Below, in pieces: positions 656 to 54,292 of a stretch of DNA of 64,000 bases. Numbering within the stretch: the first letter of the stretch is position 1; the number at the start of each line of letters is the position of its first letter. Source of the stretch: Planctomycetota bacterium (GTDB taxonomy: Bacteria; Planctomycetota; SZUA-567; H5-PLA8); contig JAKLKQ010000007.1 in NCBI GenBank assembly GCA_023150555.1, forward strand, positions 65,253 to 129,252, read 5' to 3'. Under the pieces are notes generated by a model. The model worked only from the letters and a program-made list of their open reading frames with translations. It was not told where the DNA came from and did no database searches. The position numbers and the translations under genes are program-made.

Positions 656-1471
656 TCAGCCGCGCCTCGGGCCTTCGGCGGCCAGCTCGCGTTCCATCTG
701 CGACAGGCGTTCCTCGAGCTTGAACTTCGCGACCCAGCTCATCAGCAGCGCGCGGTCCAGCTTCGGGTTGCGCTTGAGGACCTCCTTTACGTCCCAGCGG
801 TCCTTGTCACGGAAGGCCTGCAGCTTGAGCACGATCAATCCTTCGGCGCCGAGCACTCGAAGGCGAACACCCTCCAGGTGCGACTCGACGCCCGTCGCAT
901 GCAGGAAGGCCATGAACTCATGCGGAGCAACTAGCAGGTCGACATTCACTGGTGGTGCATCAGGCAGGCCGAACTGATACGGCTCCCACCAGAAGAGCGC
1001 GTCGGGCGGCATGAAGCTGGGCTTCTCGAAGCGGTGTGGGCGGATGTCGCGTTGCGCCAAGGCGGCGCGCACTTCGCGCAGGCCATCTTGGTGCCCCAAG
1101 ATGAAGAAATCCACGTCGGTGGTCGCGCGGCGCTGCCCGTGCAGGTTGACGGCCAGCCCTCCGCCCAACGCGTAGAACATACCGGTCTCGTTCAGGCTGC
1201 GCGCACCGGCAAGAACGGCCTTCCAGAGATGTTCGGCGCGCGGTTGCTTAGCGGAGGCGCCGCCGTAAACCGGCGCATCTTCGTGCGCGACCCCGGCGGG
1301 TCCCGAGGCGAATCCTTCGTCCCACGCGTCGGCCAAGCGCTCGCAGGAGCGGTAGGTGTCGAGCCAATCGTCGACGGCGCGCCGAACGCTGCCGGAAGCC
1401 GATGCGGGGTTACGGTCCATCCGTTCAGCATGCTCCTTTGAAGCCGCGCGCGCAAGGTCAACGCTACTCAA
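656..1471 (-). CDS. nucleotidyltransferase-fold protein (AbiEii/MNT-like)
   Basis: 271 aa. The motif [25 protein letters not shown] resembles the GG...R.T.D.D nucleotidyltransferase signature. It sits between ruvB and ruvA. Confidence 0.5.
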
Positions 1472-1838
1472 CTTCCACCTCCACCCAGTCGCCGTCCACC
1501 AGGCCGTGCGCGTCGCGCAGCTTCACATCGGTGGCGACCTCGATCAGACACTTCTCTTCGTCCGGCGCTTCGAACTCCGCCTTGTCCGGCCGCAAAATGA
1601 AAGCCTTGCGTCCGAAGATGCGGCAGGGAATCAGGCTTACCGAGACCGCCCCGCCGTAGTCTTCCTTCTCCAAGCGCAGGAACCTGGCCGGTCGGTGGAA
1701 CGGCGCCTCCAGCCTCACGTTCAGCGTGCCCGGAAACAGGCGCAGGCCGGTGATGCGGTGGTAGTGGTCGTTGAGTTTCTCGATCCACCGGGCGAAGTCC
1801 CCGACGCCGGTCTCGACCCGTCCGCGCAATACGCCCAT
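1464..1838 (-). CDS. DUF120 / CTP-dependent riboflavin kinase-like protein (archaeal RibK type)
   Basis: 124 aa. GVGDFARW...GTLNVRL...DGDWVEVEV aligns by eye with archaeal RibK (GLGEGRYF...GTLNLKL...DGDVIKILI). Confidence 0.55.
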   Translation of the reverse strand: MGVLRGRVETGVGDFARWIEKLNDHYHRITGLRLFPGTLNVRLEAPFHRPARFLRLEKEDYGGAVSVSLIPCRIFGRKAFILRPDKAEFEAPDEEKCLIEVATDVKLRDAHGLVDGDWVEVEVE

Positions 1839-1842
1839 CGCC

Positions 1843-2523
1843 TCACTCCGCGTAGGGCAGCGCGCGGCGGATCAGGTCCTGCACGCTTTCGGGCGCGGCG
1901 CCTTTGTTGCGCAGATCTTCGATGGCGCGCTGCACCGAACGCAGGGCCACGTCGGACGGCACCTCGTTGAGCTGCGTCACGGCCTTCACCGCCAGGTCGG
2001 TCATCTCGTCGAGATCGGACAGCGTTGCGGCGCCGGTTTCCGCTGCCGGAGCCGGCATGCCTTTTTTGCCGCGCTTGCCGGCGGCTTCGGCGGGTTGCGG
2101 CGTCTGCGTCTCGGCCTGCTTGACGAGGATCTTGCCGAGTTCCAGGACGATGCGCTTGGCGGTGGCCTCGCCGACGCCCTTGATCGCCTTCAGCGTGGCG
2201 ACGTCGCCGAGGCGGATGGCCTGCTGCAGGTGCTCGACGCGCCCGCCGCTGAGCACCGCCAGGGCCACGCGCGGGCCGACGCCCTTCACGCTGCCGATCA
2301 GCTGCCGGAAGAAGGCGCGTTCGCGTTCGGTGGCGAAGCCGTACAGCGCCAGGTTGTCGTCGGTGACGTGCAGGTGCGTCAGGACCTTCACCGGCTGGCC
2401 GGCCGCGGGCAGAGTCTCGTAGGTGTGCAGCGAGATGCGCAGCTGGTAGCCCACGCCGGCGGCCTCGACGATGGCTTCGCCCGGGGTCTTGGAGGCCAGG
2501 ATACCGGCGAGGTGGTGGTACAT
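1843..2523 (-). CDS. ruvA: Holliday junction DNA helicase RuvA
   Basis: MYHHLAGILASKTPGEAIVEAAGVGYQL...FGF...ERERAFFRQLIGSVKGVGPRVALAVLS...LKAIKGVGEATAKRIVLEL shows the RuvA domains I-III pattern. Confidence 0.9.
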   Translation of the reverse strand: MYHHLAGILASKTPGEAIVEAAGVGYQLRISLHTYETLPAAGQPVKVLTHLHVTDDNLALYGFATERERAFFRQLIGSVKGVGPRVALAVLSGGRVEHLQQAIRLGDVATLKAIKGVGEATAKRIVLELGKILVKQAETQTPQPAEAAGKRGKKGMPAPAAETGAATLSDLDEMTDLAVKAVTQLNEVPSDVALRSVQRAIEDLRNKGAAPESVQDLIRRALPYAE

Positions 2524-2637
2524 AGCGACGGTTTACGCTCTTTTCGCGGCGGCGACAAGCCCGCGCTCGGCACCAAAGAAAACCGGCGGCCTGGTAGGCC
2601 GCCGGCAATGCGTCGATGCTTGAACGGTCCGGCCGGC

Positions 2638-3960
2638 TCAGTTGACCGTCTTCAGGCCCAGGCCGATCTCGCCGAGTTTGCTCTTGATCTCGTTGAGGCT
2701 GGTCTGGCCGAAGTTCTTGGTGGCCATCAGTTCGGCCTCGGTGCGTTCGACGAGGTCGCCGATGGTCTCGATGTTCAGCCGCTGCATGCACTTGCGGCTG
2801 CGGACCGAGAACTCGAGGTCGGTGATGGGCTTCATCAGGTTGGCGTTCTCGGGCGTGCCGGTGCGCAGGCGCTGGGCGCGGGAGCGCTTGTTTTCCTCTT
2901 CCTTGTACATGCCCAGGCGCAGGCCCTTCGATTCGAGCAGGTTCTTTATTTCGCTGAGCGAGGTCTCGCCGAAGTTCTTGTAGCTGAGCAGCTCCTGCTC
3001 GGTCTTGCGGACCATGTCGCCGAGCGTGCGGACGTTCATCTTGGCGAGGCAGTTGCGGCTGCGGACGCTGAGCTCGAAGTCGCTGACGGGGATGCGCAGC
3101 ACGGCCTCGAGGCGCTCGTTCTCCTTGCGCTCGGCTTCGTCGTAGTACATGTCCAGCGACTCGATGGCATCGCGGAGGAACAGCTGCGCGCGGCGGTTGG
3201 TCGGATCGACCTTCAGGGCTTCGCGCAGGCAGGTGATCGCGCCGTCCACTTCCTCGCGGTCGTCCAGCAACAGCGCCAGGTTGACCATCGCGCTGACGAA
3301 GGCCGGGCCCTGGCCGGTGACCTTCTTGTACAGCTGCACCGCCTTCTCGTCCTCGCCGCGCAGGTCCAGGTAGTAGGCGAGGCGGAAGGCCGCGTCGCTG
3401 TGGCTGGGGTCGATCTCCAGCGCGCGGGTGTAGGCGTTGCACGCCGATTCCTGCTCGCCCTTCTTCTCCAGGCAGCGGCCCTTGTGGTAGTGCAGGTCCG
3501 CGTCGCCGGAGGCCTTGGACTCCAGCTTGGCCAGTTCGGCCAGCGCCTCGTCGGTCTTCCCGGCGGCGCACAGCGCGCCGGCGTACTCGATGGCGACCTT
3601 GGGCGTGTCGGTGATCTGCTGCGCGGCCTCGCCCAGCAGCTTGGCGGCTTCGTCGGTGCGGCCGCGGTCCAGGGCCAGTTCGCCGGCCAGCAGCTTGGCG
3701 CCGCTGCCGGTCACGTTCTTGAGCGCGTTCTCGGCCTGGTCGTAGCGGCACAGCACCCAGGCGAAGGCGCACTGGCGCAGGGCCTTCTCGTCGGCGGGCA
3801 GGTCCTCGCCGTCCAGCGTGCCGTAGCGGGTCTGCAGGACGTTGCGCTCGGCGACGGTGTTTCGCGCGACGGTGCGGAGTTTCAACAGAAGCTCGGGCGT
3901 CAGCGCGGGCTGGGCGCAGAGTTCATCGACAATGCTGGCGACGTTCACATCGGAAGCCAT
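2638..3960 (-). CDS. TPR-repeat protein with two C-terminal RNA polymerase alpha-subunit CTD-like domains
   Basis: 440 aa. The N-terminal ~270 aa carry TPR-like repeats. Two modules then follow: FELSVRSRNCLAKMNVRTLGDMVRKTEQELLSYKNFGETSLSEIKNLLESKGLRLGM and LEFSVRSRKCMQRLNIETIGDLVERTEAELMATKNFGQTSLNEIKSKLGEIGLGL. Both closely match E. coli RpoA alpha-CTD ([57 protein letters not shown]). Confidence 0.75.
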   Translation of the reverse strand: MASDVNVASIVDELCAQPALTPELLLKLRTVARNTVAERNVLQTRYGTLDGEDLPADEKALRQCAFAWVLCRYDQAENALKNVTGSGAKLLAGELALDRGRTDEAAKLLGEAAQQITDTPKVAIEYAGALCAAGKTDEALAELAKLESKASGDADLHYHKGRCLEKKGEQESACNAYTRALEIDPSHSDAAFRLAYYLDLRGEDEKAVQLYKKVTGQGPAFVSAMVNLALLLDDREEVDGAITCLREALKVDPTNRRAQLFLRDAIESLDMYYDEAERKENERLEAVLRIPVSDFELSVRSRNCLAKMNVRTLGDMVRKTEQELLSYKNFGETSLSEIKNLLESKGLRLGMYKEEENKRSRAQRLRTGTPENANLMKPITDLEFSVRSRKCMQRLNIETIGDLVERTEAELMATKNFGQTSLNEIKSKLGEIGLGLKTVN

Positions 3961-4240
3961 GGGTACCCCCTACTGTGGAAGAGCTCGAACCGACAGGCCA
4001 AGCAGCCCGCGGCCGGATCGCGTGCCGTATCTCTTTGCTAAGACGTTGGTTCGAGGCCGTCTCCCGAATCGAAGCCGAATAAATTAAGGCCTCGGGGCCC
4101 GGAGTTCAAGCGGTTTTACAGGCCCGGCCGGAGGCGGCCCGGAGGGCGGAAAACGCCCGCTTGTCCTTGACCCCCTGCGGGCATACCTTATAAGTGGAAT
4201 TCCTTTCCAGCGCTGTATCGGAGAAGCCTCTCCATTCGGT

Positions 4241-4316
<76 letters not shown>

Positions 4317-8708: not shown

Positions 8709-9374
8709 ATGGCCAAAGCAACCAAATCCAAGCCCAAGAAGAAGCCCGCGACCAAAAAGAAGGCTTCCGCCAGCAACGCGAAGGCCAAGAAAGTCACCGG
8801 CAAAGCCAAGCCGCCAGCCAAGGGAAAACCCACGGGCGGCGCGCGCAAGAGTTCCGCGTCGGCCAGCCGCGTCGAGGAGGCCGTCAAGCCGCGCAAGGAG
8901 ATCCTGCTTGACGACGACCAGATCGAGAGCCTGCCGCCGCCGGAGAAGCTCAAGCCCCTGTTCACCAAGCAGGAGTTGGACGAGATCCGCCAGCAGCTCC
9001 TGGGGGTCCTGGGACGCCTGCGCAACGACATCGAACAGGAAGTGAAGGGCGCCGGCCAGCGCGACCTGGCGCACATCAAGGAAGACTCGGACATCGCCAG
9101 CGACGCGGCCGAAGGCGACCTGGCCCTGCGCCTGGCCGAAAGCGAAGGCGTCGAGGCCGCCGAAGTCGAGCGCGCCATCGAGAAGATCGACGAAGGCTCC
9201 TACGGCTACTGCGACGTCACTGGCAAGCCGATCAACAAGGAGCGCTTGAAGTTCCTGCCCTGGGCCATCCGCAGCGTCGAGGCGCAGGAGCGCTACGAAC
9301 TGCGCAAGAAGCTGGGCGAAGACGAGGACCTGGACGACCTGGACGTCGACGACACCGGCGGCGAAGAGGAATAA
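8709..9374 (+). CDS. DksA/TraR-family transcription factor with Lys/Ala-rich histone-H1-like N-terminal tail
   Basis: The C-terminus YGYCDVTGKPINKERLKFLPWAIRSVEAQ is a DksA C4-finger region with only one Cys retained. The first ~60 aa are MAKATKSKPKKKPATKKKASASNAKAKKVTGKAKPPAKGKP. A coiled-coil lies between them. Confidence 0.7.
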   Translation: MAKATKSKPKKKPATKKKASASNAKAKKVTGKAKPPAKGKPTGGARKSSASASRVEEAVKPRKEILLDDDQIESLPPPEKLKPLFTKQELDEIRQQLLGVLGRLRNDIEQEVKGAGQRDLAHIKEDSDIASDAAEGDLALRLAESEGVEAAEVERAIEKIDEGSYGYCDVTGKPINKERLKFLPWAIRSVEAQERYELRKKLGEDEDLDDLDVDDTGGEEE

Positions 9375-24972: not shown

Positions 24973-27921
24973 GTGTCCGTGATCCGAGACGGCATCGGCG
25001 GCGTGCTTCGCTGGATCGTGCGCAAGCTGCTGCGCATCTACTACCCCAAAATCGAGATCACCGACCAGGAGAAGATCCCCCCGGCGGGCCCGGTGCTGCT
25101 GGTCTCGAACCATCCGAACTCGATGCTCGATCCCGTGGTGCTGGGCACCACCGCGCAGCGCCCGGTGCGCTTCATGGCCAAGGCGCCGCTGTTCGATATT
25201 CCCGTCTTCGGCCAGGCGATGTACGCGCTGGGGATGATCCCCGCCTACCGCGGCAGCGACGATCCGACACAGGTGGGCCGCAACGTCGATTCGCTGGTCG
25301 CCTGCGCCGAAGTGCTGGCCGAAGGCGCGGTGATGGGCATCTTCCCCGAAGGCAAGACGCACGACGAGCCGGCGCTGGAGATGGTGCGCAGCGGGCCATC
25401 GCGGATCGCGATGCAGGCGGTCGAACGCGGCGTCGTCGGCGTGAAGATCGTGCCCGTGGGCCTGCACTACGAGGACAAGGAACGCCTGCGCAGCTCGATC
25501 TGGGTGCGCGTGGGCGATCCGATCGACGCCAACGCCTGGTTGCAACAGCACGAAGGCGACGTGCGCAAGGCCACCCGGCTGCTTACGCAGGAGATCGCGC
25601 GCCGCCTGAAGGAACTGGTTCTGCACCTCGACGACCCCAAGCTGGCACCGCTGCTGGACGACCTCGAGACCCTGGTGCCGCCGCCGCCCGAACGCGCCGT
25701 GCTGCCGGCCGCGGCGCTGCGCCAGCGCAAGGCCGTCGCAGATTCGATCAACTACTTCCTCGCCGCGGACCGCCCGCGCGCGGAGGCCATCGCGCGCGCC
25801 ATCGACGAGCACCGCACAAAGATCCACGATGCCGGCCTTACAATGCGCAGCTCCATCCTGCACAAACGCGGCCTGCGGCTGGCCGCACGCCTGGCCTGGC
25901 GCTCGGTATGGCTCGTGCTTCTCAGCATCCCCGCACTCTTCGCGTCCCTCTTTCACCTTCTCCCGTTCGCCCTGACACGCTTCATCACCGAGAAGGTGAA
26001 GACGCCCGGCCGGTCGGCGGTCTCCTTCGGGCGCCTGATGCTGGGCCTGCCGATCTACGGCGCATGGTACGCACTCTTCTACTGGTACCTGAAGGAGCAC
26101 GCCTTCACGACGGTGGCCATCTGCGCGATCCTGATCCTGCTTCCCTTCGCGGGACTGCTGGCGCTCGGCCACGGCCGAAACCTGCGCCGCGCCGGATTCT
26201 CGTGGATGCATCAGATCGCGATGCTCTTCGGCCGCCAGCGCCTCGAAAAGCTGCGCGCCGAACGCGGGGCGCTGCAGGCGCGCCTGAGCGACCTGGCCGC
26301 CGAGTACCGCCGCGCTTTCCCGCTCAAGCAGCCGCCGGTCCAGCCGCCGCGCGTGCGGCTGGGTTTCGCCGGCGTCACGGTCGCGGTTTTGGCGGCGCTG
26401 CTCCTCGGCTGGGCCTACCTCCGCACGCGCGCAGCGACGATCGCCGAGCAACTCGGAGACGGCCCCGACCTGGCGAAGATCGAGGCGCCCGTGCTGGTCG
26501 AGCAACTCGACCGCGACGCGGCGGGCTTGGCCCAGATTGTCGACGGGCTGAAGGATCTTGAGACGAAAGCGCTGCTCTTGCGCAAGTCGTTCGCCGAGGG
26601 CGAACGATCCTACTACAACGTCGCGGACGACAACGCCGTGCGGCAGGCACTGTGGTCCTACCTATCGTACCGCAAGGCGCTGCTGCGACTGGTCTGGTAC
26701 TACCAGAATTTCGCGCAGGCCCGGGACGAAGGCCTGCGCCTGCGCGCGCAGCTGCTGGAGACCGCGGCGGCGGCGGCGCTGTACGAGTATTCGGTGCGTT
26801 TCGTCACCGAATTCGGCCGCAGCGAGGAGACCATAAAGAAGCTCAACGAAGGCGAGCCGCGCTGGGGCATTCCGCCCGACGCGTACGATACGATTCGCAA
26901 GAACCTCGCGCGCGCCCATAACCGCCGCACCATCGAGGCCTTCTTCGAGCAATACCACGAGGCCGCAGGCGACTTCGAACGCCTGGGGCTGAAGGACGAC
27001 GAACCCTACGCAAAGATGCATGCCGCGATCGCCAACGCGCAGGACAGCATCGCCGAACTGGGCCGCAGCGTATGGACCGAAGAACTGGCGCTGACGGCCC
27101 GCGAAACGAAAGCGCTGGGCTACCAGGCCTACTACACCGGGCAGTCCCTAATCGCTACCTGGATCGGCAACACCATGGTGCGCAAGCCGCGCGAGGGCCA
27201 TACGCTGATTGGTGAAGCGCAGCTGGAAGCGCTAAAGAAGAAGCTGCAGCCCGGCGACATCCTGCTCGAACGCCGCAACTGGTTCCTCTCGAACATGTTC
27301 CTGCCCGGCTACTGGCCCCACGCGGCGATGTACGTCGGCACGGCGGAAGACATCGAGCGGCTGGGCCTGAAGGACGACCCCTTCGTGGCAAAGCACTGGG
27401 CCGAGTTCGCCGCGGCCGACGCCGAGGGGCACCACCACGTGATCATCGAGGCCCTGAGCGAAGGCATCGTCTGCGCATCCCTGGAGCACAGCATCGGCGG
27501 CGGCGACAGCACGGCCGTCCTGCGCCCGAAGTTGAGCGAGGAAAAGATCAAGCAGGCCATCGTCCGTGCGTTCAGCCACATGGGCAAACCGTACGACTTC
27601 GAGTTCGATTTCTTCAGCAGCGACAAAATCGTCTGCACGGAACTGGTCTACCGCTGCTACCAGGAGGAGATCGATTTCCCGCTCGTCGACGTGATGGGCC
27701 GCCAGACGCTTCCGGCCATCGAGATCGTGCGCAAGTTTGCCAATGACCGCAAGGCGGGTACGCCGCAGCTGGAACTGATCGCGTTTTTGGACGGAGATGA
27801 GAAGACCGGCGCGTGCCGATTCTTTGGCGACGAGGAATTCGTCCAGACCCTGGAGCGCCCCGCGCTGACTTTCCTGCAATCCTCACAGGAAGGCGGGGAG
27901 GATCCGGGCGAAGGTCAGTAG
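24973..27921 (+). CDS. fusion protein: lysophospholipid acyltransferase (PlsC/LPLAT) N-domain + membrane region + C-terminal YiiX-like permuted papain-fold domain
   Basis: The N-terminus has the acyltransferase HX4D motif (SNHPNSMLD) and FPEG. Mid-protein there are TM helices. The C-terminus ...HHHVIIEALSEGIV...GKPYDFEFDFFSSDKIVCTELVYRCY resembles the YiiX/DUF830 permuted NlpC/P60-like family. Confidence 0.65.
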   Translation: MSVIRDGIGGVLRWIVRKLLRIYYPKIEITDQEKIPPAGPVLLVSNHPNSMLDPVVLGTTAQRPVRFMAKAPLFDIPVFGQAMYALGMIPAYRGSDDPTQVGRNVDSLVACAEVLAEGAVMGIFPEGKTHDEPALEMVRSGPSRIAMQAVERGVVGVKIVPVGLHYEDKERLRSSIWVRVGDPIDANAWLQQHEGDVRKATRLLTQEIARRLKELVLHLDDPKLAPLLDDLETLVPPPPERAVLPAAALRQRKAVADSINYFLAADRPRAEAIARAIDEHRTKIHDAGLTMRSSILHKRGLRLAARLAWRSVWLVLLSIPALFASLFHLLPFALTRFITEKVKTPGRSAVSFGRLMLGLPIYGAWYALFYWYLKEHAFTTVAICAILILLPFAGLLALGHGRNLRRAGFSWMHQIAMLFGRQRLEKLRAERGALQARLSDLAAEYRRAFPLKQPPVQPPRVRLGFAGVTVAVLAALLLGWAYLRTRAATIAEQLGDGPDLAKIEAPVLVEQLDRDAAGLAQIVDGLKDLETKALLLRKSFAEGERSYYNVADDNAVRQALWSYLSYRKALLRLVWYYQNFAQARDEGLRLRAQLLETAAAAALYEYSVRFVTEFGRSEETIKKLNEGEPRWGIPPDAYDTIRKNLARAHNRRTIEAFFEQYHEAAGDFERLGLKDDEPYAKMHAAIANAQDSIAELGRSVWTEELALTARETKALGYQAYYTGQSLIATWIGNTMVRKPREGHTLIGEAQLEALKKKLQPGDILLERRNWFLSNMFLPGYWPHAAMYVGTAEDIERLGLKDDPFVAKHWAEFAAADAEGHHHVIIEALSEGIVCASLEHSIGGGDSTAVLRPKLSEEKIKQAIVRAFSHMGKPYDFEFDFFSSDKIVCTELVYRCYQEEIDFPLVDVMGRQTLPAIEIVRKFANDRKAGTPQLELIAFLDGDEKTGACRFFGDEEFVQTLERPALTFLQSSQEGGEDPGEGQ

Positions 27922-28718
27922 TGCAAAACGTTGCGCTCGAGGAGCCAGCCTTCTCCCACCCCGGGCAGCCGCGCAAGAACCCAATCGCCTCGCGACTCAA
28001 CGAGTTCGAACTCCGCGCCTTCCTGCAGCGCTTTGACGAACGCTTCCTTGTAGTCCTCTCCGGGACCTAAGCGCGCAACGGTGGTTTCCAAAACCACGCC
28101 GTACTCGGCCTGCACGTCCTCTTGGTAACCCAGCACCGCGCTGGCGCCTGCGACCAGCAGCAGGGCCGCGGCCACCGCCATCGCGCCGTGCAACCCCGGA
28201 TGCATTCGCGTCCTGCGCCAGGCCAGCAGGCGAAGGCTCGCCAACACGAACAGCAGCGCAAAGCACCCCACGGCAGCCTGTTGCCGCTCCTCCTGGGACA
28301 TCGAATCGTGGAGGAACAATACATGCTTCCACCACGGCGGCTTGGCTTCCGGGTAATGCCCCGGCGCGGTTGCCAGCGCCGACTGAAGGTTGTATTCCAG
28401 GTACGGGTCGCGGGGGCGCAGGCGCTGCGCGCGCCGGTAAGCTGCGATGGCGCGCGCCACCTGCCCCGCGCGCATGTAGGCGTTGCCGAGATTGTACAGC
28501 ACCGCGCCGTTCTGGTAGCCGTCGGCGAGCAGGGATTCGAACAGCGCTGCCGCGTGCGCGAACTCGGCGGGCGTCTTCGCCTTGTCGAAAGCCTCGAGGC
28601 CCTGCACGAACGTCCGCGTGCGGCTCGACTCGTCGGCCCATGCCGGAGCGGCGGCAATCCACGCGCACGCCGCAAGCCCGGCGGCCATCAGGAGGGCCCT
28701 CGCAGCGCGCCTGCTCAT
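27915..28718 (-). CDS. BatE-like TPR/SH3b protein (last gene of Bat operon)
   Basis: There is a signal peptide and TPR motifs (AVLYNLGNAYMRAGQVARAIAAYRRA). A TM follows. The C-terminus is an SH3b-like beta segment (GAEFELVESRGDWVLARLPG...GWLLERNV). Confidence 0.5.
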   Translation of the reverse strand: MSRRAARALLMAAGLAACAWIAAAPAWADESSRTRTFVQGLEAFDKAKTPAEFAHAAALFESLLADGYQNGAVLYNLGNAYMRAGQVARAIAAYRRAQRLRPRDPYLEYNLQSALATAPGHYPEAKPPWWKHVLFLHDSMSQEERQQAAVGCFALLFVLASLRLLAWRRTRMHPGLHGAMAVAAALLLVAGASAVLGYQEDVQAEYGVVLETTVARLGPGEDYKEAFVKALQEGAEFELVESRGDWVLARLPGVGEGWLLERNVLHY

Positions 28719-30616
28719 GCCGAAAGCGCCTTATACAGGCGCCGCGCCAGCGCGGCGGCTCGTTTCCGGATCTCGGCCGCGTCGCCGGCCGCCACGGCGG
28801 CGCCGTAGGCCTGTGCCTCAAGGGCCTCCAACAGCCCGGCCAAATCCTGCCGCAGGTCCTGGTCGGCGGCGGCGGCTTCCAAGGCGCCATCTGCGTCGCG
28901 CGGCGTCGTGCCAGCGGCCGGCAGGTTGACCTGGTCGGCGACCAGACCAAGCAGCGCCGCGCGGACCTCAGCCGATGCATCGGCAGGCTTCCCTTCGGTA
29001 GAAGCGATGCGTTCCAGGCAGCGTTTGAGCGCACCCTGGCGGCGCTGCCACGCGACGTCGTTCTCAATGCGGCGGCGGCGCGCCACCAGAGACCACAACG
29101 CCAGGTAACACAGCACCAGCCCGGCCGGCAGGGCGACATAGGGACGGATGTCCACGCGCTGGTCGTCCAGCTGCGCGAGGTCGGTGATGTTCTGGCGCAG
29201 GCCGCCTTCGGTTTCCTTTAGATCCAGCACGCCCTGGGTCCGGCGCTCGGCGGAGACGATCTCTGCCGAACTGACGCGATCGGCCTTTTGTACGTCAAGT
29301 TTCACCGGATCGGTGTGCACGGTCTCGAACTTCTCGTTCTCGGGATTAAAGTACGTCATGGTAATCGGAGGAAGGTCCACGCCCGCCGCCGCGGGACGCA
29401 GGCTGTAGGTGAAGACCTTGCCCTCCTCCGACTTCTCGCCGATGGGCTTCTCGTCGAACACCTTGAAGCGCTCAACGACCTGCGGCTGGTCGGCGAGATT
29501 GGGGGCCTCGATCAGATTCAACGAGCCGCTACCGGGCTCGGACCTGATCTCCAGCTTCACCTCCAGCGGATCGCCGACGCGCAGGCGCCGAGGGGTAGCC
29601 GTCGCGTGAATGGTGAACCGGCCGATAGCGCCGGAAAAGTCCGCGGGCGCGTTCAGGGTGGCCAGGTCGACCACATCGACAGTGGCGGGCTCGGCGACGA
29701 CCATAAGGCGCTGCGTATTGAGGCGGTTGCCGGTCGCACCAGTTGGCAGCATGCCCTTCAGCGTCGCGGGCCCGAAGGTGACGCGGCCGGGGTGTTCCGC
29801 AACGAATTTCAGCGGAAAGTCGTAGACGAAGTAAAAGGCCTTGGAACCGTCCAGCTTCGCGCGCTGCATCCGGTCGGATTTAGGCAGGACGACGGCCGCG
29901 CGGGTGCCGAAGCCGAAATCCAGCGGCCCGCGGTTGATCGTGTAGCCTTCCATCTCGAAGCCGAAGCGCTTGCGCTGCAGGATCTCGCGCAGCAGGTCGT
30001 CGGGGCGCTGTCGCATCTCGACGCCTTCCGGGGGTTCGAGGAACCACGGCACGCGCAGCGAAGGCGGATTGACAAACTTGATCGGGTCGCGCCCTTCCAA
30101 TCCGGGAACTTCCTGAAGCGCCACCCGCAGGGTGACGGTGAACGGCTGCGTCGGGAAGACGCGCTTGGGCTCGATTACGATCTCGGCCTGGGCCCAGTCC
30201 TGCAACTCCGGCGCGTTGACCGTGATGGCCAGCGGATCGCTGGTGTAGGTCTTCCCTTTGACGGTGATCGTCGCTCCGGGCAGGCGCAGGCGGCCCGACT
30301 TGCGGGGCGTCAGCCGATAGGTGTAGCGCACACCCTGGTAGAGGCGCGTGTTGACCTGGTGCGTGAACGTCATGCGATTCGGGCCGGCGATGTCCCAAAC
30401 GGCCGGATCGAGGCCCAGGTCGGGCGTGATGGACTCGGTGACGTTCAACGCGGTCAACTGATAGGCGATATTCTCGCCGACGTAGACTTCCGTTACGTCG
30501 GTCTCCACCAGCACCTGCACGTCGCCTTCCGCCGCGCGAACGCAGCACGAAACCGCACCGGCCAGTACGGCCGCGAGCAGTTGAAGCGTGCGCGGGTTTC
30601 GCATGCCGATTACCAA
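28715..30616 (-). CDS. batD: BatD-family (oxygen tolerance) protein
   Basis: 633 aa. The architecture is a signal peptide, a large extracytoplasmic domain, a TM near residue ~490, and a C-terminal cytoplasmic helix domain. It sits between BatB and BatE homologs. Confidence 0.7.
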   Translation of the reverse strand: MVIGMRNPRTLQLLAAVLAGAVSCCVRAAEGDVQVLVETDVTEVYVGENIAYQLTALNVTESITPDLGLDPAVWDIAGPNRMTFTHQVNTRLYQGVRYTYRLTPRKSGRLRLPGATITVKGKTYTSDPLAITVNAPELQDWAQAEIVIEPKRVFPTQPFTVTLRVALQEVPGLEGRDPIKFVNPPSLRVPWFLEPPEGVEMRQRPDDLLREILQRKRFGFEMEGYTINRGPLDFGFGTRAAVVLPKSDRMQRAKLDGSKAFYFVYDFPLKFVAEHPGRVTFGPATLKGMLPTGATGNRLNTQRLMVVAEPATVDVVDLATLNAPADFSGAIGRFTIHATATPRRLRVGDPLEVKLEIRSEPGSGSLNLIEAPNLADQPQVVERFKVFDEKPIGEKSEEGKVFTYSLRPAAAGVDLPPITMTYFNPENEKFETVHTDPVKLDVQKADRVSSAEIVSAERRTQGVLDLKETEGGLRQNITDLAQLDDQRVDIRPYVALPAGLVLCYLALWSLVARRRRIENDVAWQRRQGALKRCLERIASTEGKPADASAEVRAALLGLVADQVNLPAAGTTPRDADGALEAAAADQDLRQDLAGLLEALEAQAYGAAVAAGDAAEIRKRAAALARRLYKALSA

Positions 30617-33447
30617 TCCTTCTCGACGGGCGCAGGTTGCCCCATGCGCGCCTTCAGGTCTTCCTGAACCTTGCGGCGCTCCTTCTCGTGCTCGCGCGCC
30701 TTGCGCATCAGGGCCTCGATCTCTTCTTCGGTCATCTCGCGCTGGTCCTGGTTTTCCTGGCCGCCGTCTTTCTGCTCCTTCTTGTCCTGATCCTTCTTCT
30801 GGTCACCCTGATTATTGCCTTTGTTCTTATCCTGGTCCTTGTCGTCCTTCTTCTGGTCCTCACCCTTCTTCTGCTGCTGGTCCTGCGGGTCGCCCTGCTG
30901 TTGCTGCTGGTCTTTCGGCAGGTTCTTCGAGATCTCCTCCAGGATCTTGCGCGCCTCCCCCGCTTCCGGATGTGCCGCGCCGCGCCGGCCCGCGGACAAA
31001 TGCTTCGCCGCAGCCGCCTGGTGCTTCAGGGCTTTGGGCGCAAGATCGATCGCCTTCTCAACGCCTTCCTTGACCTTCTTCGGATCCTGCTCCTGCTTGG
31101 GCACGGGTGGCTGCGTGCCGTTCTTGGGATCGGCCTGGTCCGTATCGGGCAAGGCTTCCAGCATCTTAAGCATCTCTTTCGCTTTCGGCACTATCAGAGC
31201 GGCCGACCGCTGGGCGTTCTCCTGTTCCTTCAGCACCCGCGCGGTAGGCGTCGCGACGGCGGGATCCGGCGCCGCGGAGCCATCCGCCGCCTGCGGCCTG
31301 ACGGCTTCGACGACGCGCGTCTGCCGTTCCAGCGCACGCGCCACGATCGGCCCGACGGGCGCCAGCACTTCCCAGATCGATTCCAGATTCGAACTCGCCT
31401 GTTCCTGGGCCTGCGATGCTGCAGCCGGATCGTGCAAGCCCAGCTTCTCGGCGGCCAGGCCCATCTGCCGGGCAGACTCGGCGGACCATTTGAGGAACTG
31501 GGCGACAGCCTGTTCGAGGTGCTCGGTCTGCTCCTTCGAGGGCGCCGGGCCCTGCTGGCCGGGCGGCCCGCCCTGGCCATGGGCCTGGGCCTTGAGTTCC
31601 TCGATCTTCGCGTTGAGAGTGGGAATCTCCTCGAGCAGCGCGGCCTGAGCGCGCTTGAGTTCCGCAAAGCGATCGACCGGCGTCTGCGGATCGGCGGCGG
31701 CGGCATCGCTCTGGTCGCGCAGGCCGTTCTCGGTTTTCATCAGGTAGTCCAGGAACTGTACGAGGTCCATGTCCTTGCGGCGCTGCTCCTGCTCCTGCTT
31801 GCGCCAGAGTTCCGTGTAGTACTTGATCCAGAGGCGGATGCGCTCCAGGTTGCGGCGCGCTTGTGCGTGGCTCTTGTCAAAGGCCAGGCACTGGCGGTAG
31901 TTCGCAACTGCCGCGGCGAGGCGCTCGAGCACCTGAGGGCGCTTCTCGGGCGCGAGTTGCGCGGGATTGGATCCCACCAGCGCATTGGCCGCGTCGGCTT
32001 CCAGGCAGCCAAGATTGTAACGCGCGGACGAAGCAATGTGGCGGTCGCGCGAGAGGCTGGCCTTCTGGTACTGCTCGGCCGCGCGTTCGAGGTCGCCTTC
32101 CTTCTGGTAGGCGCAAGCGAGGTCGAAGGCGATCTCCGGCGTCTCGGGCTGGGAGACGTCGGCCCCCATGAACTTGCGCCGCGCGCCGGAGTAATCGGCG
32201 TTCGCATATGCCTCCAGGCCTTCGCGGACCAGCACCACCGGGTCGCCGGTCGCGATCTCCTCCTTTTTCTTTTCCTTGCCCTGCGATTCTTCTGCGGGCG
32301 GTCCGGTCTTCTCCGGTACCGCGGATACGGCTTCGCTCGCCCGAACGCTGCCCGCGCCCAGCACCACGGCCAGCAGCACGCCGCCAGCGGCCAGCGACCC
32401 CCTGCCTGCTGGCGCGGCCACCTCCGGCCGCGCGCGCCTCGGGAAACGGCGCACGAACATCTCGAGCACAAAGAAGATCAGCCCGAGGCCAAGGAAGACC
32501 TGGTACTGCTCCCGCATGCGCTTGCGCTTCTGCTCGTTGGCCTCCTCGCCCTGCATCTTGCGGATGCGCTCGGCCAGGTCCTCGAAGTCGTAGCCGCGCA
32601 CGCCGAAGGGCACGTAGGCACCGCGCGTCGTCAGGGCAATCTTGCGCAGCAGGTCCTCATCCAGTTGCGAACGCACTTCCTTGCCCTGGTAGGTCATCAC
32701 CGAACCGGCGGTCTTGCCGGGCACCGGCGCGCCCTCCTCCGGATCGCCCACGCCGACGGCGAAGACGGGGATGTTGCGCTCCTCGGCGGCCTCCGCCGCT
32801 TCCATGGGATAGCTGTCCTGGTCGCCGCCGTCGGTGATGAGGAGCATGGCCTGGTCACGCGAGCCGTCCTTGGGCAGCACCTCCAAGGCCTTGCGGATGG
32901 CGTCGCCAATGGCCGTTCCGCCGCGCGGCGCGCTGTCGGTGTCTACGTCGTCCAGGGCCAGGCGGAAGAAACCGCTGTCGGACGTCAGCGGGCACTGCAC
33001 GACCGGCCGGCCCGCGAAGGCGATCAGGCCCATGCGCACGCCTTCCAGCTTGTTGGCCAGCACCTTGATGTCTTCCTTGGCGCGCTGCAGGCGGCTGGGC
33101 GCGACGTCCCGCGCGGTCATCGAACGAGAGACATCCAGCAACACGTACAGGTCACCGCCGCGCTGGCGAATCTGCGTGAAATACACCCCGAAGCGCGGCC
33201 GCGCCGCCGCCAGGAGCACGCAAACCAGTGCCAAGGCCCACAGGCCCGTCTTGAGCCAGAAGCGCGCAGGGCTGTCGGGCGGCAGCAGGCGCTCGTGCAT
33301 AGCTTCCGCGACGAAGGCCCGCGCGGCGCGGCGCCGGCGGATGCGCGCGTAGTAGGCCAGCCCGATCCACAGCGGGACCAGCCAAAGGAAGTAAAGCGCC
33401 TCGGGGTTCTGCCAGTTCATCGCTCGTTTCCCGTCATGGCAGCGCAC
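30610..33447 (-). CDS. batB: BatB-like VWA + TPR protein with long C-terminal coiled-coil and Gln/Asp/Lys-rich tail
   Basis: Two N-terminal TM segments are followed by a VWA domain (LLDVSRSM...LLITDGGD). TPRs follow (ACAYQKEGDLERAAEQYQKA...), then a ~400-aa coiled-coil and the tail KDQQQQQGDPQDQQQKKGEDQKKDDKDQDKNKGNNQGDQKKDQDKKEQKDGG. The likely start is MNWQNPE at 33420. Confidence 0.8.
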   Translation of the reverse strand: MRCHDGKRAMNWQNPEALYFLWLVPLWIGLAYYARIRRRRAARAFVAEAMHERLLPPDSPARFWLKTGLWALALVCVLLAAARPRFGVYFTQIRQRGGDLYVLLDVSRSMTARDVAPSRLQRAKEDIKVLANKLEGVRMGLIAFAGRPVVQCPLTSDSGFFRLALDDVDTDSAPRGGTAIGDAIRKALEVLPKDGSRDQAMLLITDGGDQDSYPMEAAEAAEERNIPVFAVGVGDPEEGAPVPGKTAGSVMTYQGKEVRSQLDEDLLRKIALTTRGAYVPFGVRGYDFEDLAERIRKMQGEEANEQKRKRMREQYQVFLGLGLIFFVLEMFVRRFPRRARPEVAAPAGRGSLAAGGVLLAVVLGAGSVRASEAVSAVPEKTGPPAEESQGKEKKKEEIATGDPVVLVREGLEAYANADYSGARRKFMGADVSQPETPEIAFDLACAYQKEGDLERAAEQYQKASLSRDRHIASSARYNLGCLEADAANALVGSNPAQLAPEKRPQVLERLAAAVANYRQCLAFDKSHAQARRNLERIRLWIKYYTELWRKQEQEQRRKDMDLVQFLDYLMKTENGLRDQSDAAAADPQTPVDRFAELKRAQAALLEEIPTLNAKIEELKAQAHGQGGPPGQQGPAPSKEQTEHLEQAVAQFLKWSAESARQMGLAAEKLGLHDPAAASQAQEQASSNLESIWEVLAPVGPIVARALERQTRVVEAVRPQAADGSAAPDPAVATPTARVLKEQENAQRSAALIVPKAKEMLKMLEALPDTDQADPKNGTQPPVPKQEQDPKKVKEGVEKAIDLAPKALKHQAAAAKHLSAGRRGAAHPEAGEARKILEEISKNLPKDQQQQQGDPQDQQQKKGEDQKKDDKDQDKNKGNNQGDQKKDQDKKEQKDGGQENQDQREMTEEEIEALMRKAREHEKERRKVQEDLKARMGQPAPVEKDW

Positions 33448-34516
33448 GGAAGCGCGTCGCCATCAGTACGGCCTCCAGCAGCAGCAAACCCAGCCCGGCC
33501 AGCAGCGGAATGAGGAACAGTTCGTCGTACTCGGTGTACACCGCCTGCTCGGTCTCGCTGCGTTCGAGCTGGTCGATGCTCTTGTAGACTTCCACCAGGG
33601 CCTCGGTGTTCTCGGCGTGGTAGTAGCTTCCGCCGGTCTCCTCGGCGGCCTTGCGCAGCAGGTCTTCGTCGAGCGAAACGCTGATGTGCTCGATGACAGT
33701 GCGTCCGTAGGCGTCCTCGACCTGGATGGGTGCCTGCCCAGTGTGCCCGATGCCGATGGCGTAGATCTTCACGCCCTTCTTCTTGGCTGCTTCGATGGCC
33801 TTCTCCGGCTCCACGACCCCGACGTTGCTCTCGCCGTCGGACAGCAGAACGATGATCTTGCTCTTGGCCTCGACCTGCTCGAGCCGGTCCAGTGCCAGCG
33901 CCAGGGCGTCGCCGATGGCCGTGGCGCGCTCCTCCTGGACCAGTTCCCGGTTGATGGGCCGGCCCTGGCGGTCGAAGATCAGGCGCGGGACTTCCAGCGA
34001 ATTCAACACGTCCACGAACGCGCCGTGATCCAGCGTCAGCGGGCAGCGGCTGTAGGCCGTGCCGCCGAAACCGACCAGGCCCATCAGATCGTTCGCGCGC
34101 CCGCGCAGGCCCGAACCCTTACTACCGGCCACGAACTCGCCGAGCACATACTTGACGGCTTCCAGGCGCGTGACCTGCTTGTCGTCGAGGCTGAAGTCCA
34201 TAGCCTCCATGGAGCCCGAGACGTCCAGGGCTGCCTCGATGGCAATGCCTTCCGTGCGCACGCGCGTCTCCGTGATGCCCAGCTGAGGCCGCGCCAGCGC
34301 CACGGTCAGGAACAGCAGCCCCAGGCAGCGGATGACCGGCATCCAGGCCTTCACGCGCTGCGCGACCGTGACCGGCACGTCCTTCAGGCCCTGCAGGCTG
34401 CTGAAGATCGCCGTCGGCCGGTTGCGCGCGCGCGCCGACCACCACACACCGGCGACGGCCAGCGGTGCCAGGAAGAACGCCTGCGGCGTATGCCACTGCG
34501 GCAGCCAGTCCCACAC
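33434..34516 (-). CDS. batA: BatA-like VWA-domain membrane protein
   Basis: N- and C-terminal TM segments flank a VWA domain with MIDAS (LDVSGSM ... VLLSDGESN). Confidence 0.85.
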   Translation of the reverse strand: MWDWLPQWHTPQAFFLAPLAVAGVWWSARARNRPTAIFSSLQGLKDVPVTVAQRVKAWMPVIRCLGLLFLTVALARPQLGITETRVRTEGIAIEAALDVSGSMEAMDFSLDDKQVTRLEAVKYVLGEFVAGSKGSGLRGRANDLMGLVGFGGTAYSRCPLTLDHGAFVDVLNSLEVPRLIFDRQGRPINRELVQEERATAIGDALALALDRLEQVEAKSKIIVLLSDGESNVGVVEPEKAIEAAKKKGVKIYAIGIGHTGQAPIQVEDAYGRTVIEHISVSLDEDLLRKAAEETGGSYYHAENTEALVEVYKSIDQLERSETEQAVYTEYDELFLIPLLAGLGLLLLEAVLMATRFRALP

Positions 34517-34558
34517 GGGCGTTGCGGTCCCCTCTCCGGTCGTTCACGCCGCGCCGCC

Positions 34559-35680
34559 TCAACGCAGCGTCGCGGCCTGCTCCTTGCGCAGCGCTTCCTC
34601 GGGCTCGCCCTGCGCGATCAACCTGCTCTCGCCGCGCACGCCGACGAACTCCTGCGCGCGCGTAAACGCTTCCTCGATGTCCTTCGCATCCGGACGGTGC
34701 GCGGCGTACTTCACCATGTCGCTGGCTTCCAGGAAGCGGCTCAGCTGACGCGCCTTCTCGGCCACGAAGCGCCGGTCGGCCTGCATCGCGCGCAGGAACT
34801 CCTCGGTGGTCTGCTCCGGCGCGTGGATGCCGGTGATGCGTTCGATGTAGCGGCGCACGACGCCGGTCAGTTCGACGTAGAAATCCACGATCAGACCCTG
34901 CTCGGGCAGGTTGCGCTGCATCAATGCGAGCAGCTCCTGATAGGCGACCATTTCCGGAGACGGCGGCGGCGGAATAAAGATCGGCTCCTCGCGGCGCCTG
35001 AACGCGAAGTACGCGATCGTACCCAGGACCACGACCGTCCCCACGATGACCCAGGCCAGCCAACCGAAGCGCGGTTCGCCGGGCAGCGGCACCGGATCGG
35101 CCATGGGCTCGAGTTTCGCGAGGTCCGGCACGTCCTCGCCGAATTCGGAAGAGACCTCCAATTCCACCGGATCGAGTTCGATCGCGGAGGTCTTGCCCTT
35201 TGACTCGCTGCCTTCCCGGCGGTCGGTGAACTCGATGCGAATCGCGCGGACCAGGTGCTTCTCCGCGCAGGTCGGTTCGAGGCGGTACTCCCAGCGGCGA
35301 ACCGTCTTGCCGTCCTCGATGGCCGGCGCAGGCGAAGCGTAGTCCAGGATAGTGAAGTCGCCGACGGCGGCGGCAAAAGGAGGAGGCGCGATGTCCACCT
35401 GCGGTTCGGCGCGGACGGTGACGACCAGCGTCACGACGTCGCTCAAGCGCGGCTCCGCGGGCGTGACCTCCAGATGCGCGTGGACCGGACCGTTCTCCGC
35501 GTCGCGCGTGACATTCGCCGGCGCCGCAGCTTCATTCTCCGCCGGGCCGTCCTCGCCGGACGGCTCGGATTTCCCACACCCCGCCAAGACCAGGGCCAAA
35601 GCCAGCGCTGCCAACAGCACCGGCGCGGCGTCCGCCCGGCGGCGGCATTCCTCGGAGTATGGGCGCATCGGCATGTTCAT
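34559..35680 (-). CDS. Bat-operon lipoprotein / DUF4381-like membrane protein
   Basis: A lipobox LAGCG, a central TM (WLAWVIVGTVVVLGTIAYFAF) and a C-terminal helical domain sit in the position of the TM hypothetical upstream of batA in Bat operons. Confidence 0.45.
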   Translation of the reverse strand: MNMPMRPYSEECRRRADAAPVLLAALALALVLAGCGKSEPSGEDGPAENEAAAPANVTRDAENGPVHAHLEVTPAEPRLSDVVTLVVTVRAEPQVDIAPPPFAAAVGDFTILDYASPAPAIEDGKTVRRWEYRLEPTCAEKHLVRAIRIEFTDRREGSESKGKTSAIELDPVELEVSSEFGEDVPDLAKLEPMADPVPLPGEPRFGWLAWVIVGTVVVLGTIAYFAFRRREEPIFIPPPPSPEMVAYQELLALMQRNLPEQGLIVDFYVELTGVVRRYIERITGIHAPEQTTEEFLRAMQADRRFVAEKARQLSRFLEASDMVKYAAHRPDAKDIEEAFTRAQEFVGVRGESRLIAQGEPEEALRKEQAATLR

Positions 35681-37110
35681 TTCTGCGCGGGGGCCTTCTC
35701 CGGTTCGGGTCCTCGGCCGCGGCTATCGCCTTCCAGTATCACGCGGTAGCGCGCACGCAGGTCACGGACCAGCTCATCGCTCAATTCCCGCTGCCGGGTC
35801 TGCAGGCAGCGTGCGCGAACCTGCTCGGCGGCCTGCTCGAACGGCCGCACGGGGTCAATCTCGCGCGATTGCACCAGGAAGAGAAAGTGCCGGCCCTCGA
35901 CCTGCATCGGCGCGGAGACCCTGCCCGTCGGTTCGCCAAAGACGAAGGCGTCGAGGTCCACCGAATTCGGCAGGCCCAGCAGGCTGCCGCCCTGCTGGTA
36001 GGACGTGGAAAGCGCGCCGCCGTCCTTTTTGGTGGCCTCGTGGATCGAACTTGCCTTGGCGGCCTCCCGGAAAGCCGGCTCGCCGGCCTCCTTCAGCTTC
36101 GCAGCCAGGTCCAGGGCGTCCTTGGCTGAGGCGCATTCGATCAGCAGCAGCTTCGCATTCGATGGCCCGGTGAACTCGCTCTTGTGCCCGGCGTAGTAGT
36201 TCTTCAGGTCCTCGGGCGTCGCGACCAGCCGCGCGCCGATCTCCTTTTCAAGCACCGCCCGCTCCAGGAGCATGCGCTCGACCTGGCTCATGCGTCCCAG
36301 AAAGGCATCGTCGCGGTCCAGGCCCAATTCGCGGGCGCGCCTTACGAGCACTTCCTGCTGGAGCAGTTGGTTCAGGATCTCCTCGCGGTGCCGGGGCGCG
36401 CGCAACTCGGACAACAGCTGTTCGCGGGCTTGGGCGTCCATCCGCCCGCCCAGCATTGCGTCGACCTGGCCTTCGACAAGGCGATCCAGGTCTGCGGTGG
36501 TCACCGGCTCACCGTCGATGCGCGCGAGCACCTCTGCCTCGCCGGCCTCCGCGCCCGTGGTGCGCCGGCGCAGTTCGCGGCCGACTTCGCCCGAACGGCC
36601 TAGCTTGCCCAGGCAATCGACCAGGCGCAGCCCGATCTGGTGCTTGAGATTGTCGTCGCCGCCCTGCTTCAGGTCGCGCTCGGCGGCCACGTAAGACGCG
36701 GCTGCTTTTTCCGCGTCGCCGGCCTTCTCGAAGAGCGTCCCGGCGCGGTACATGAACTTGGCTCGCTTACCGGCGTCCGCTTGACCGCGCGCGACCGCGC
36801 GCCACTCGGCGGCGGCTTCAGACCACAGGCTGCGCTCTTCCAGGCGCAGGGCCAGGGCATCGTCCCCGGTCAGCGCGGAGCCGGACGCAGCGGACTCGGA
36901 CTCGGCGCCGGCGGACGAACCGCCGCCGGGGCGCAGCAGCAGGAGAACCAGGATGCCGAGATTCAGCAGGAGCACGAGAAAGACCAGCGAACGCCCGCCG
37001 GAAGGGGCAGGCGAAGCAGCGGACCTGGCGAGCGGGCCGGGTGCCGGAGCCAACTGGAGTTGAGGCGACGGGCCCGCGCCGGGTGCCTGATCGCCGCTGG
37101 TTTCGGACAT
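35677..37110 (-). CDS. membrane-anchored SurA/PrsA-like parvulin (PpiC-type) peptidyl-prolyl isomerase
   Basis: A TM anchor is followed by a SurA-N-like region (IDGEPVTTADLDRLV), then a PpiC rotamase-like region (...NAKLLLIECASAKDALDLAAKLKEAG...GGALSTSYQQGGSLLG...EGRHFLFLV). Confidence 0.55.
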   Translation of the reverse strand: MSETSGDQAPGAGPSPQLQLAPAPGPLARSAASPAPSGGRSLVFLVLLLNLGILVLLLLRPGGGSSAGAESESAASGSALTGDDALALRLEERSLWSEAAAEWRAVARGQADAGKRAKFMYRAGTLFEKAGDAEKAAASYVAAERDLKQGGDDNLKHQIGLRLVDCLGKLGRSGEVGRELRRRTTGAEAGEAEVLARIDGEPVTTADLDRLVEGQVDAMLGGRMDAQAREQLLSELRAPRHREEILNQLLQQEVLVRRARELGLDRDDAFLGRMSQVERMLLERAVLEKEIGARLVATPEDLKNYYAGHKSEFTGPSNAKLLLIECASAKDALDLAAKLKEAGEPAFREAAKASSIHEATKKDGGALSTSYQQGGSLLGLPNSVDLDAFVFGEPTGRVSAPMQVEGRHFLFLVQSREIDPVRPFEQAAEQVRARCLQTRQRELSDELVRDLRARYRVILEGDSRGRGPEPEKAPAQK

Positions 37111-37134
37111 AGCGATGTCTTTCTCTCCGGCGCG

Positions 37135-38022: not shown

Positions 38023-38033
38023 GGACAGAACCC

Positions 38034-39026
<993 letters not shown>

Positions 39027-54279: not shown

Positions 54280-54292
54280 GCCCCTACCCTCC

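Follow-up and report, generated by a model that had tools for sequence, protein, structure and literature searches.

A planctomycete tetratricopeptide repeat protein with two tandem alpha-CTD modules outside RNA polymerase, a candidate DNA-tethering adaptor

The DNA analysed here is a stretch of 64,000 nucleotides of contig JAKLKQ010000007.1 (positions 65,253 to 129,252, forward strand) from the Planctomycetota bacterium assembly GCA_023150555.1, hereafter called the window, with a G+C content of about 67%. Near its start, a complete gene on the reverse strand encodes a protein of 440 amino acids (aa), in which a tetratricopeptide repeat (TPR) scaffold is followed by two copies of the C-terminal domain of the alpha subunit (alpha-CTD) of RNA polymerase (RNAP), named CTD1 and CTD2 below. 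Its open reading frame (ORF) has a G+C content at third codon positions (GC3) of 0.94, which is typical of real genes in the window sequence, and its product is identical to GenBank MCK6471099.1, recorded as 'MAG: tetratricopeptide repeat protein [Planctomycetes bacterium]'. The gene and the segments of its product are the following:

2638..3960, - strand: TPR and double alpha-CTD gene, complete, 440 aa (ORF with ATG start)
3175..3960, - strand: N-terminal helical region and TPR superhelix, aa 1-262 (Pfam TPR matches, AlphaFold2 (AF2) model, Foldseek, conservation)
3109..3174, - strand: conserved linker before CTD1, aa 263-284, with an S-L-D-M-Y-Y-D-E motif and a short helix (alignment, AF2)
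2905..3108, - strand: alpha-CTD module 1 (CTD1), aa 285-352 (Pfam, alignment, structure comparison)
2851..2904, - strand: charged inter-domain linker, aa 353-370, helical then disordered in the AF2 models and poorly conserved
2641..2850, - strand: alpha-CTD module 2 (CTD2), aa 371-440 (Pfam, alignment)

A Pfam search matched PF03118 (RNA_pol_A_CTD) to two stretches of the protein with an E-value of 1.2e-44 and 150.3 bits (cut-off 23.8), both modules matching strongly, and placed TPR_19, TPR_16, TPR_2, TPR_1 and other TPR families above their cut-offs at about aa 85-260. Together with the predicted fold, these matches bear out what a first reading of the letters alone (hereafter the sequence-only reading) had described, namely tandem, free-standing alpha-CTDs on a TPR scaffold. 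The protein is a member of a PF03118 plus TPR family and is not RpoA, because the N-terminal domain of alpha is absent and the scores against the rpoA equivalogs are under their cut-offs. Indeed (i) neither PF01193 nor PF01000, which cover the N-terminal dimerisation and assembly domain of alpha, was matched by Pfam in the 440-aa protein, (ii) a tblastn search with this domain from Escherichia coli gave no match in the window or in 84 related loci, and (iii) the NCBIfam equivalogs TIGR02027 and NF003513 reached 140 bits (cut-off 227.8) and 161 bits (cut-off 302), respectively, with matches confined to the C-terminal positions of the models. The similarity between aa 232-285 and RpoA 192-250 was too weak for interpretation.

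The full-length AF2 model has a predicted local distance difference test (pLDDT) score of 87.4 and a predicted template modelling score (pTM) of 0.60. It consists of an all-helical TPR solenoid at aa 9-270 (pLDDT >90), followed by a short helix (275-288), CTD1, a charged helix (351-367), a low-confidence stretch and CTD2; confidence is low at aa 271-280, in the linker before CTD1. Foldseek neighbours of this model were generic TPR proteins only, including CTPR, OGT and APC TPR structures. The model of the CTD tandem (pLDDT 84.9) superimposed on solved alpha-CTDs with a root-mean-square deviation (rmsd) of 0.6-1.0 Å over 64-66 residues, and its target-normalised template modelling scores were 0.8-0.94 against 9zum, 1lb2, 3n97 and 1z3e, the first three of which are DNA-bound alpha-CTD structures. 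Both modules are thereby predicted to have the compact double helix-hairpin-helix fold, (HhH)2, of the alpha-CTD, and the comparison with RpoA structures that had been proposed from the sequence yielded agreement.

This architecture extends throughout the phylum. A survey of TPR and alpha-CTD fusions, which the sequence-only reading had suggested, was made with one genome per GTDB species; at least 595 species-level Planctomycetota genomes, drawn from all classes of the phylum, have a relative. The best 80 matches span Gemmatales, Pirellulales, Planctomycetales, Singulisphaera, Phycisphaerae, Sedimentisphaerales and Brocadiia including Kuenenia, with one locus per genome. A protein database search returned thousands of matches, of which the best 120 are mostly 430-460 aa long, a few truncated sequences excepted; the architecture is common to these 120, down to 43% identity, and all the named ones are from Planctomycetota. 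Furthermore, when the CTD tandem was compared with 1.84 billion cluster representatives, 263 clusters (50% identity) were matched at E<=1e-30, most of them of 430-460 aa. Tandem duplicates of the gene were seen at four related loci (L019, L023, L030 and L040). The architecture is already present in the databases under generic names, and the family is functionally uncharacterised.

In Rhodopirellula baltica SH1, the ortholog is RB1964 (CAD72353.1), annotated as 'RNA polymerase alpha subunit domain protein' (COG0202/K03040), and the genuine rpoA is RB12626, which encodes 331 aa and adjoins L17 (Wecker et al. 2009, supplement, PMC2754498). Because R. baltica has both genes, the family is separate from, and coexists with, a normal-length RpoA. 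JGI pipelines label members of the family 'DNA-directed RNA polymerase subunit alpha', as would suit a fragment of rpoA, a pseudogene or a misassembly. That explanation, which the sequence-only reading had itself raised, is refuted and retains next to no probability: the frame is intact, with the GC3 of a real gene; hundreds of orthologues with this length and architecture are under strong purifying selection; both modules match PF03118, with equivalog scores far under the cut-offs; no N-terminal domain of alpha lies in the window; and rpoA stands apart in R. baltica.

At the residue level, CTD1 (aa 286-354) aligned without gaps to E. coli RpoA 251-319 in a phmmer search against PDB sequences, in which CTD2 aligned to the Caulobacter alpha-CTD; CTD2 shares 52% identity with E. 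coli RpoA 253-314 (BLASTP). The near residue-for-residue correspondence noticed from the sequence is thus confirmed. In E. coli numbering (protein position minus 35 for CTD1 and minus 122 for CTD2), CTD1 reads D259, F260, E261, R265, S266, R267, N268, C269, N294, F295, G296, E297, T298 and S299, and CTD2 reads R265, S266, R267, K268, C269, N294, F295, G296, Q297, T298 and S299. Accordingly numbered, R300, N303, C304, N329, G331 and S334 of CTD1 correspond to E. coli R265, N268, C269, N294, G296 and S299, and R302, E332 and T333 are its family signature residues (A267R, K297E and K298T). CTD2 keeps R387, C391, G418 and S421, with K390 in place of N268 and T420 in place of K298. CTD1 has five, and CTD2 four, of the six residues that make up the '265 determinant' (R265, N268, C269, G296, K298 and S299). 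The sequence-only reading had assigned R265, N268 and C269 to both modules, which holds for CTD1 (VRSRNCL) and, in CTD2 (VRSRKCM), for R265 and C269 but not for N268, which is a lysine there. It had also noted the replacement of K298 (GETSL and GQTSL), and a threonine does stand at this position in both modules, preceded by E in CTD1 and Q in CTD2 at position 297.

Conservation was counted over 228 distinct members of the family, with the following results at the positions in question (E. coli numbering):

R265 equivalent: R in 100% (CTD1), R in 100% (CTD2)
A267 position: R in 99% (CTD1), R in 89% (CTD2)
N268 equivalent: N in 98% (CTD1), K/R in 92% (CTD2)
C269 equivalent: C in 99% (CTD1), C in 83% (CTD2)
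N294 equivalent: N in 100% (CTD1), N in 99% (CTD2)
G296 equivalent: G in 100% (CTD1), G in 100% (CTD2)
K297 position: E in 97% (CTD1), Q in 64% (CTD2)
K298 position: T in 99% (CTD1), T in 89% (CTD2)
S299 equivalent: S in 100% (CTD1), S in 100% (CTD2)

The strongest constraint lies on the face that corresponds to the DNA-contact face of the alpha-CTD, and the substitutions at 267, 297 and 298 are fixed as tightly as the DNA-contact residues that are kept. In CTD1, the equivalents of D259 and E261, which form the contact of the E. coli alpha-CTD with sigma region 4, are conserved in 90% and 99% of members, and those of E286 and E288 in 86-97%; the position of V287, a residue of the activator-contact patch that is central to CAP-type contacts, is variable (Q/P/A/S). 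CTD1 is the most conserved segment of the protein (mean column identity 0.80-0.83 versus 0.37-0.55 for the TPR region); in a 35-sequence alignment, the mean column identities were 0.83 for CTD1, 0.74 for CTD2, 0.71 for the linker before CTD1 and 0.55 for the TPR region. In the same number of homologs, the median net charge was -9 for the N-terminal and TPR part and +3 for CTD1, CTD2 being neutral. A conserved patch in the TPR region comprises F192, D199, G202, Y211, N227, D234, P253 and R257, and the linker motif S-L-D-M-Y-Y-D-E is 86-93% conserved.

The explanation tentatively preferred here, quite possible while still short of probable, is that the two alpha-CTDs form a tether to the DNA minor groove and the TPR array a platform that recruits a partner, in a transcription or nucleoid role. 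The protein would be a cytoplasmic adaptor, conserved phylum-wide in Planctomycetota. Because selection concentrates on the DNA-contact residues, both modules may bind the minor groove and the backbone in the manner of the alpha-CTD at A/T-rich UP elements, and, since CTD1 and CTD2 are connected by about 20 residues of flexible linker, they would probably occupy neighbouring sites or minor grooves, like the two alpha-CTDs of RNAP. The contact set would be a modified one, with R265, N268, C269, N294, G296 and S299 kept, K298 lost and an Arg gained at 267, and this extra Arg may compensate for the lost lysine. More speculatively, the acidic TPR platform, perhaps with the MYYDE linker, could recruit a protein partner, for instance RNAP, a sigma factor or some other part of the machinery of gene expression or of the nucleoid; the protein might then tether this partner to A/T-rich DNA, or compete with the alpha-CTDs of RNAP for such sites. 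Among the functions proposed in the sequence-only reading (docking to DNA or to activators, or a decoy for regulators that bind the alpha-CTD), the conservation pattern favours DNA docking, because the DNA-contact residues show hardly any variation, in contrast to the V287 position.

Several points weigh against such a tether. K298 is reportedly among the residues on which E. coli alpha depends for binding to UP elements (Gaal et al. 1996; Murakami et al. 1996), and K298T together with K297E in CTD1, in 97-99% of members, could weaken or abolish DNA binding. The loss of K297 and K298, which affects both modules, is the main counter-argument, and it keeps alive the idea of a protein hub or decoy, in which the modules bind no DNA and present docking surfaces to alpha-CTD-binding proteins. 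Such a hub would sequester activators, sigma region 4 or Spx-like or NusA-like factors, or bring them to the partner of the TPR array. The conservation of D259 and E261 in CTD1 may leave room for this kind of protein-contact role; the E286 and E288 equivalents are likewise kept, and TPR domains are protein-protein scaffolds. However, the most invariant residues are those of the DNA-contact set, a new Arg is fixed at 267 beside R265 and the V287 position is free to vary, and a hub or decoy is considered unlikely. Further points against the DNA tether are that the conservation of the HhH hairpins may partly reflect the requirements of the fold, that the relative placement of the domains is ill-defined in the AF2 model (pTM only 0.60) and that no functional study on the family, PF03118, RB1964 or alpha-CTD-like proteins was found in the literature.

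Expression data are available for the R. baltica ortholog. RB1964 was detected in stress microarrays, in which salt shock lowered its level 2.3- to 2.5-fold, the log2 values being -1.19 after 10 min and -1.35 after 60 min. It belongs to k-means cluster 15, whose other members include rpoA, 13 genes for ribosomal proteins, EF-Ts, IF-1, trigger factor, SecDF, SecE and DeaD (PMC2754498). This is the profile of a growth-coupled gene-expression component, and it is correlative. The co-regulation with rpoA and ribosomal genes would also suit an accessory RNAP subunit, a special case of the DNA-tether explanation in which the TPR array docks stably on RNAP and provides two extra alpha-CTDs in trans, extending the upstream contacts at promoters. 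The phylum-wide occurrence at one locus per genome among the best 80 matches and the retention of both UP-contact and sigma-contact residues point the same way; against it stand the normal length of R. baltica RpoA, which presumably has its own CTD, and the location of the family gene outside the rpoA and ribosomal cluster, so that a stable subunit is held to be distinctly unlikely. A more general proposal, also improbable though somewhat less so, is a phylum-specific general factor whose alpha-CTD pair would read A/T-rich upstream DNA in trans and recruit or organise RNAP or the nucleoid.

Compared with the alpha-CTD of RpoA, the modules have a homologous predicted (HhH)2 fold and are about 50% identical in sequence to the domains of E. 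coli and Caulobacter, and CTD1 keeps the equivalents of the six DNA-contact residues R265 to S299 listed above as well as D259 and E261. The family differs from RpoA by the lack of the alpha N-terminal domain, by the presence of the alpha-CTD twice per chain in fusion with a TPR array, and by the substitutions A267R, K297E/Q and K298T, with N268K in CTD2. An alpha-CTD-related HhH domain outside RpoA is also found at the C-terminus of TfoX/Sxy, a co-activator proposed to bind DNA beside CRP (bioRxiv 10.1101/284836). TfoX differs in having a single HhH domain, another N-terminal domain and another lineage, and no TfoX domain was detected by Pfam in the 440-aa protein. By analogy, the modules also resemble domain II of RuvA and ComEA, which are small HhH modules contacting the DNA backbone and minor groove in a non-specific way; unlike these HhH families, the sequence similarity of the planctomycete family is specifically to the alpha-CTD. 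In functional terms, the alpha-CTD itself, the HhH domain of TfoX/Sxy and such generic (HhH)2 DNA binders are the closest precedents.

Alpha-CTD modules outside RpoA were also encountered in poly-alpha-CTD arrays, in an internal region of BREX PglW and in stand-alone phage proteins annotated 'RNA polymerase alpha subunit C-terminal', with differing architectures: arrays of 3-11 repeats, fusions to a helicase or to sigma-70 region 4, and phage proteins of about 110-240 aa. By analogy, the recurrence of the module in arrays fused to a ResIII helicase domain or to sigma-70 region 4 agrees with a DNA-binding unit that is portable. The repeats of the arrays mostly keep the K298 equivalent or vary there, and one repeat of P0128 has 'GETSL'. 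For the 440-aa protein, the sole match to PADLOC defence models was over 74 residues, to the internal alpha-CTD-like region of PglW (E=1e-8), and a search of phage families gave nothing beyond an unannotated TPR phrog. No publication was found on the alpha-CTD arrays, the alpha-CTD-like region of PglW or the alpha-CTD phage proteins.

In brief, the arrays with 3-11 alpha-CTD repeats, which have neither names nor an assigned function, include P0122, P0223/P0273, P0165, P0150, P0166, P0208 and P0128, and three consecutive genes at L085:1350-8096 all carry such repeats. P0166 consists of three alpha-CTDs and a sigma-70 region 4 domain. P0274 (L086:5001-9191, 1396 aa) combines a ResIII helicase domain with four C-terminal alpha-CTD repeats; its gene follows an SMC gene at a distance of about 770 bp, and a single small unannotated gene lies in the interval. 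P0263 (365 aa) has three near-identical RpoA-type CTDs in tandem ('ELELSVRSANCL...NFGRKSLNEI'), which may reflect either a genuine triplication or an error of assembly. Small stand-alone phage proteins with the alpha-CTD fold in BFVD include A0A2P1JY10 of Rhodococcus phage Finch and A0A5Q2WLP1 of Mycobacterium phage Mithril; they could mimic the host alpha-CTD or compete with it.

To our knowledge, textbooks describe the alpha-CTD only as the flexibly tethered tail of the alpha subunit of RNA polymerase. What is new here is the occurrence of this module outside RNA polymerase, on a TPR scaffold and throughout a phylum. A strongly selected, phylum-wide TPR protein with two alpha-CTDs implies an unrecognised use of the module, for which UP-element-type contacts in trans, competition with RNAP or the tethering of another machine to DNA are possible. 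If true, the phylum-specific general factor proposed above would amount to an UP-element reader that is detachable and shares the regulation of the ribosomal and transcription apparatus, and it would represent a new class of general transcription or nucleoid factors in bacteria; the significance would rise substantially if DNA binding and a partner in RNAP or the nucleoid were demonstrated. Some planctomycetes are open to genetic manipulation and RB1964 provides an ortholog from a cultured species, and the question is therefore directly testable. There is also a practical consequence. Two genes of planctomycete genomes together encode three PF03118 domains, and at least one marker set (PMC3663571) has treated PF03118 as single-copy; such use, like the naming as 'RNA polymerase subunit alpha', is misleading for Planctomycetota and could distort marker-based quality estimates and rpoA-based phylogenies.

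The surroundings of the gene in the window comprise the following features:

1843..2523, - strand: ruvA, the next gene downstream, context only (TIGR00084, E=4e-45)
1464..1838, - strand: CTP-dependent riboflavin-kinase-like gene, between ruvA and ruvB
656..1471, - strand: AbiEii/DUF2204-like nucleotidyltransferase, between ruvA and ruvB
..653, - strand: ruvB, starting at 653 and running off the window start (PF05496, E=1e-70)
2582..2606, - strand: terminator-like hairpin with an 11-bp stem and 9 G-C pairs, then a T-run TTTTCTTT, between the stop of the TPR and double alpha-CTD gene and the start of ruvA
4241-4316, + strand: tRNA-Lys (CTT), in the divergent intergenic region upstream of the TPR and double alpha-CTD gene

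The sequence-only reading had placed the gene next to ruvA and ruvB. This is correct for ruvA, which follows directly downstream, and not for ruvB, which is separated from ruvA by two genes; the nucleotidyltransferase holds the same place at related loci L001 and L002. Because the terminator-like hairpin precedes ruvA, the TPR and double alpha-CTD gene is probably a transcription unit of its own. Hairpins of other sequence lie at the same place in L001 and L004 and none in L003, these being three other ruvA-linked loci. Among the 84 related loci, ruvA was found directly 3' on the same strand in 18 of the 77 with room for it, including Brocadiia relatives at 37-45% identity, and was absent there in the other 59. 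The commonest followers elsewhere were SpoIID-like genes (26 loci), tgt (25), yajC (19) and secDF (18), and in R. baltica tgt follows RB1964. Two loci, L013 and L033, have the complete string of family gene, ruvA, ruvB, SpoIID, tgt, yajC and secDF. The gene has a fixed place at the head of an old string of housekeeping genes, from which ruvAB can be missing; since it keeps its position without them, the adjacency is more in keeping with inherited synteny than with a dedicated functional tie to Holliday-junction processing.

These data also bear on a role as a recombination or repair accessory of RuvAB, in which the (HhH)2 modules would bind branched or duplex DNA and the TPR array would recruit RuvA or RuvB. 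The neighbourhood of ruvA here and at the 18 related loci, as well as the use of HhH motifs by RuvA itself, would be in line with it. This role is nevertheless very unlikely, since at most loci the SpoIID-tgt-yajC-secDF genes follow in place of ruvA, a hairpin intervenes in the window, L001 and L004, and RB1964 clusters with translation and transcription genes, not with repair genes. The idea of an operon with ruvA was downgraded on the same grounds, and the link to ruvA and ruvB implied in the sequence-only reading, resting on a real adjacency, is weak.

Upstream of the TPR and double alpha-CTD gene lies a divergent ABC-2 transporter operon, and an A/T-rich patch, TTAATTTATTC, is located at about 4077-4087 (- strand), about 120 nt upstream of the start codon. 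Elsewhere in the window, the gene at 8709-9374 (+) codes for a C4 zinc-finger protein of the DksA/TraR type, whose long N-terminal tail is rich in Lys, Ala and Pro and resembles histone H1. A Bat/MoxR-type operon at 27915-39026 (-) comprises genes for a MoxR AAA ATPase, a DUF58 protein, BatA-like and vWA proteins, BatD and a TPR protein, and includes a peptidyl-prolyl isomerase (PPIase)/SurA-like gene. Finally, the region at 51319-55984 (-) encodes a hybrid histidine kinase (Tll0287-like sensor, two receivers and Hpt) and, adjoining it, a Ser/Thr kinase-receiver fusion.

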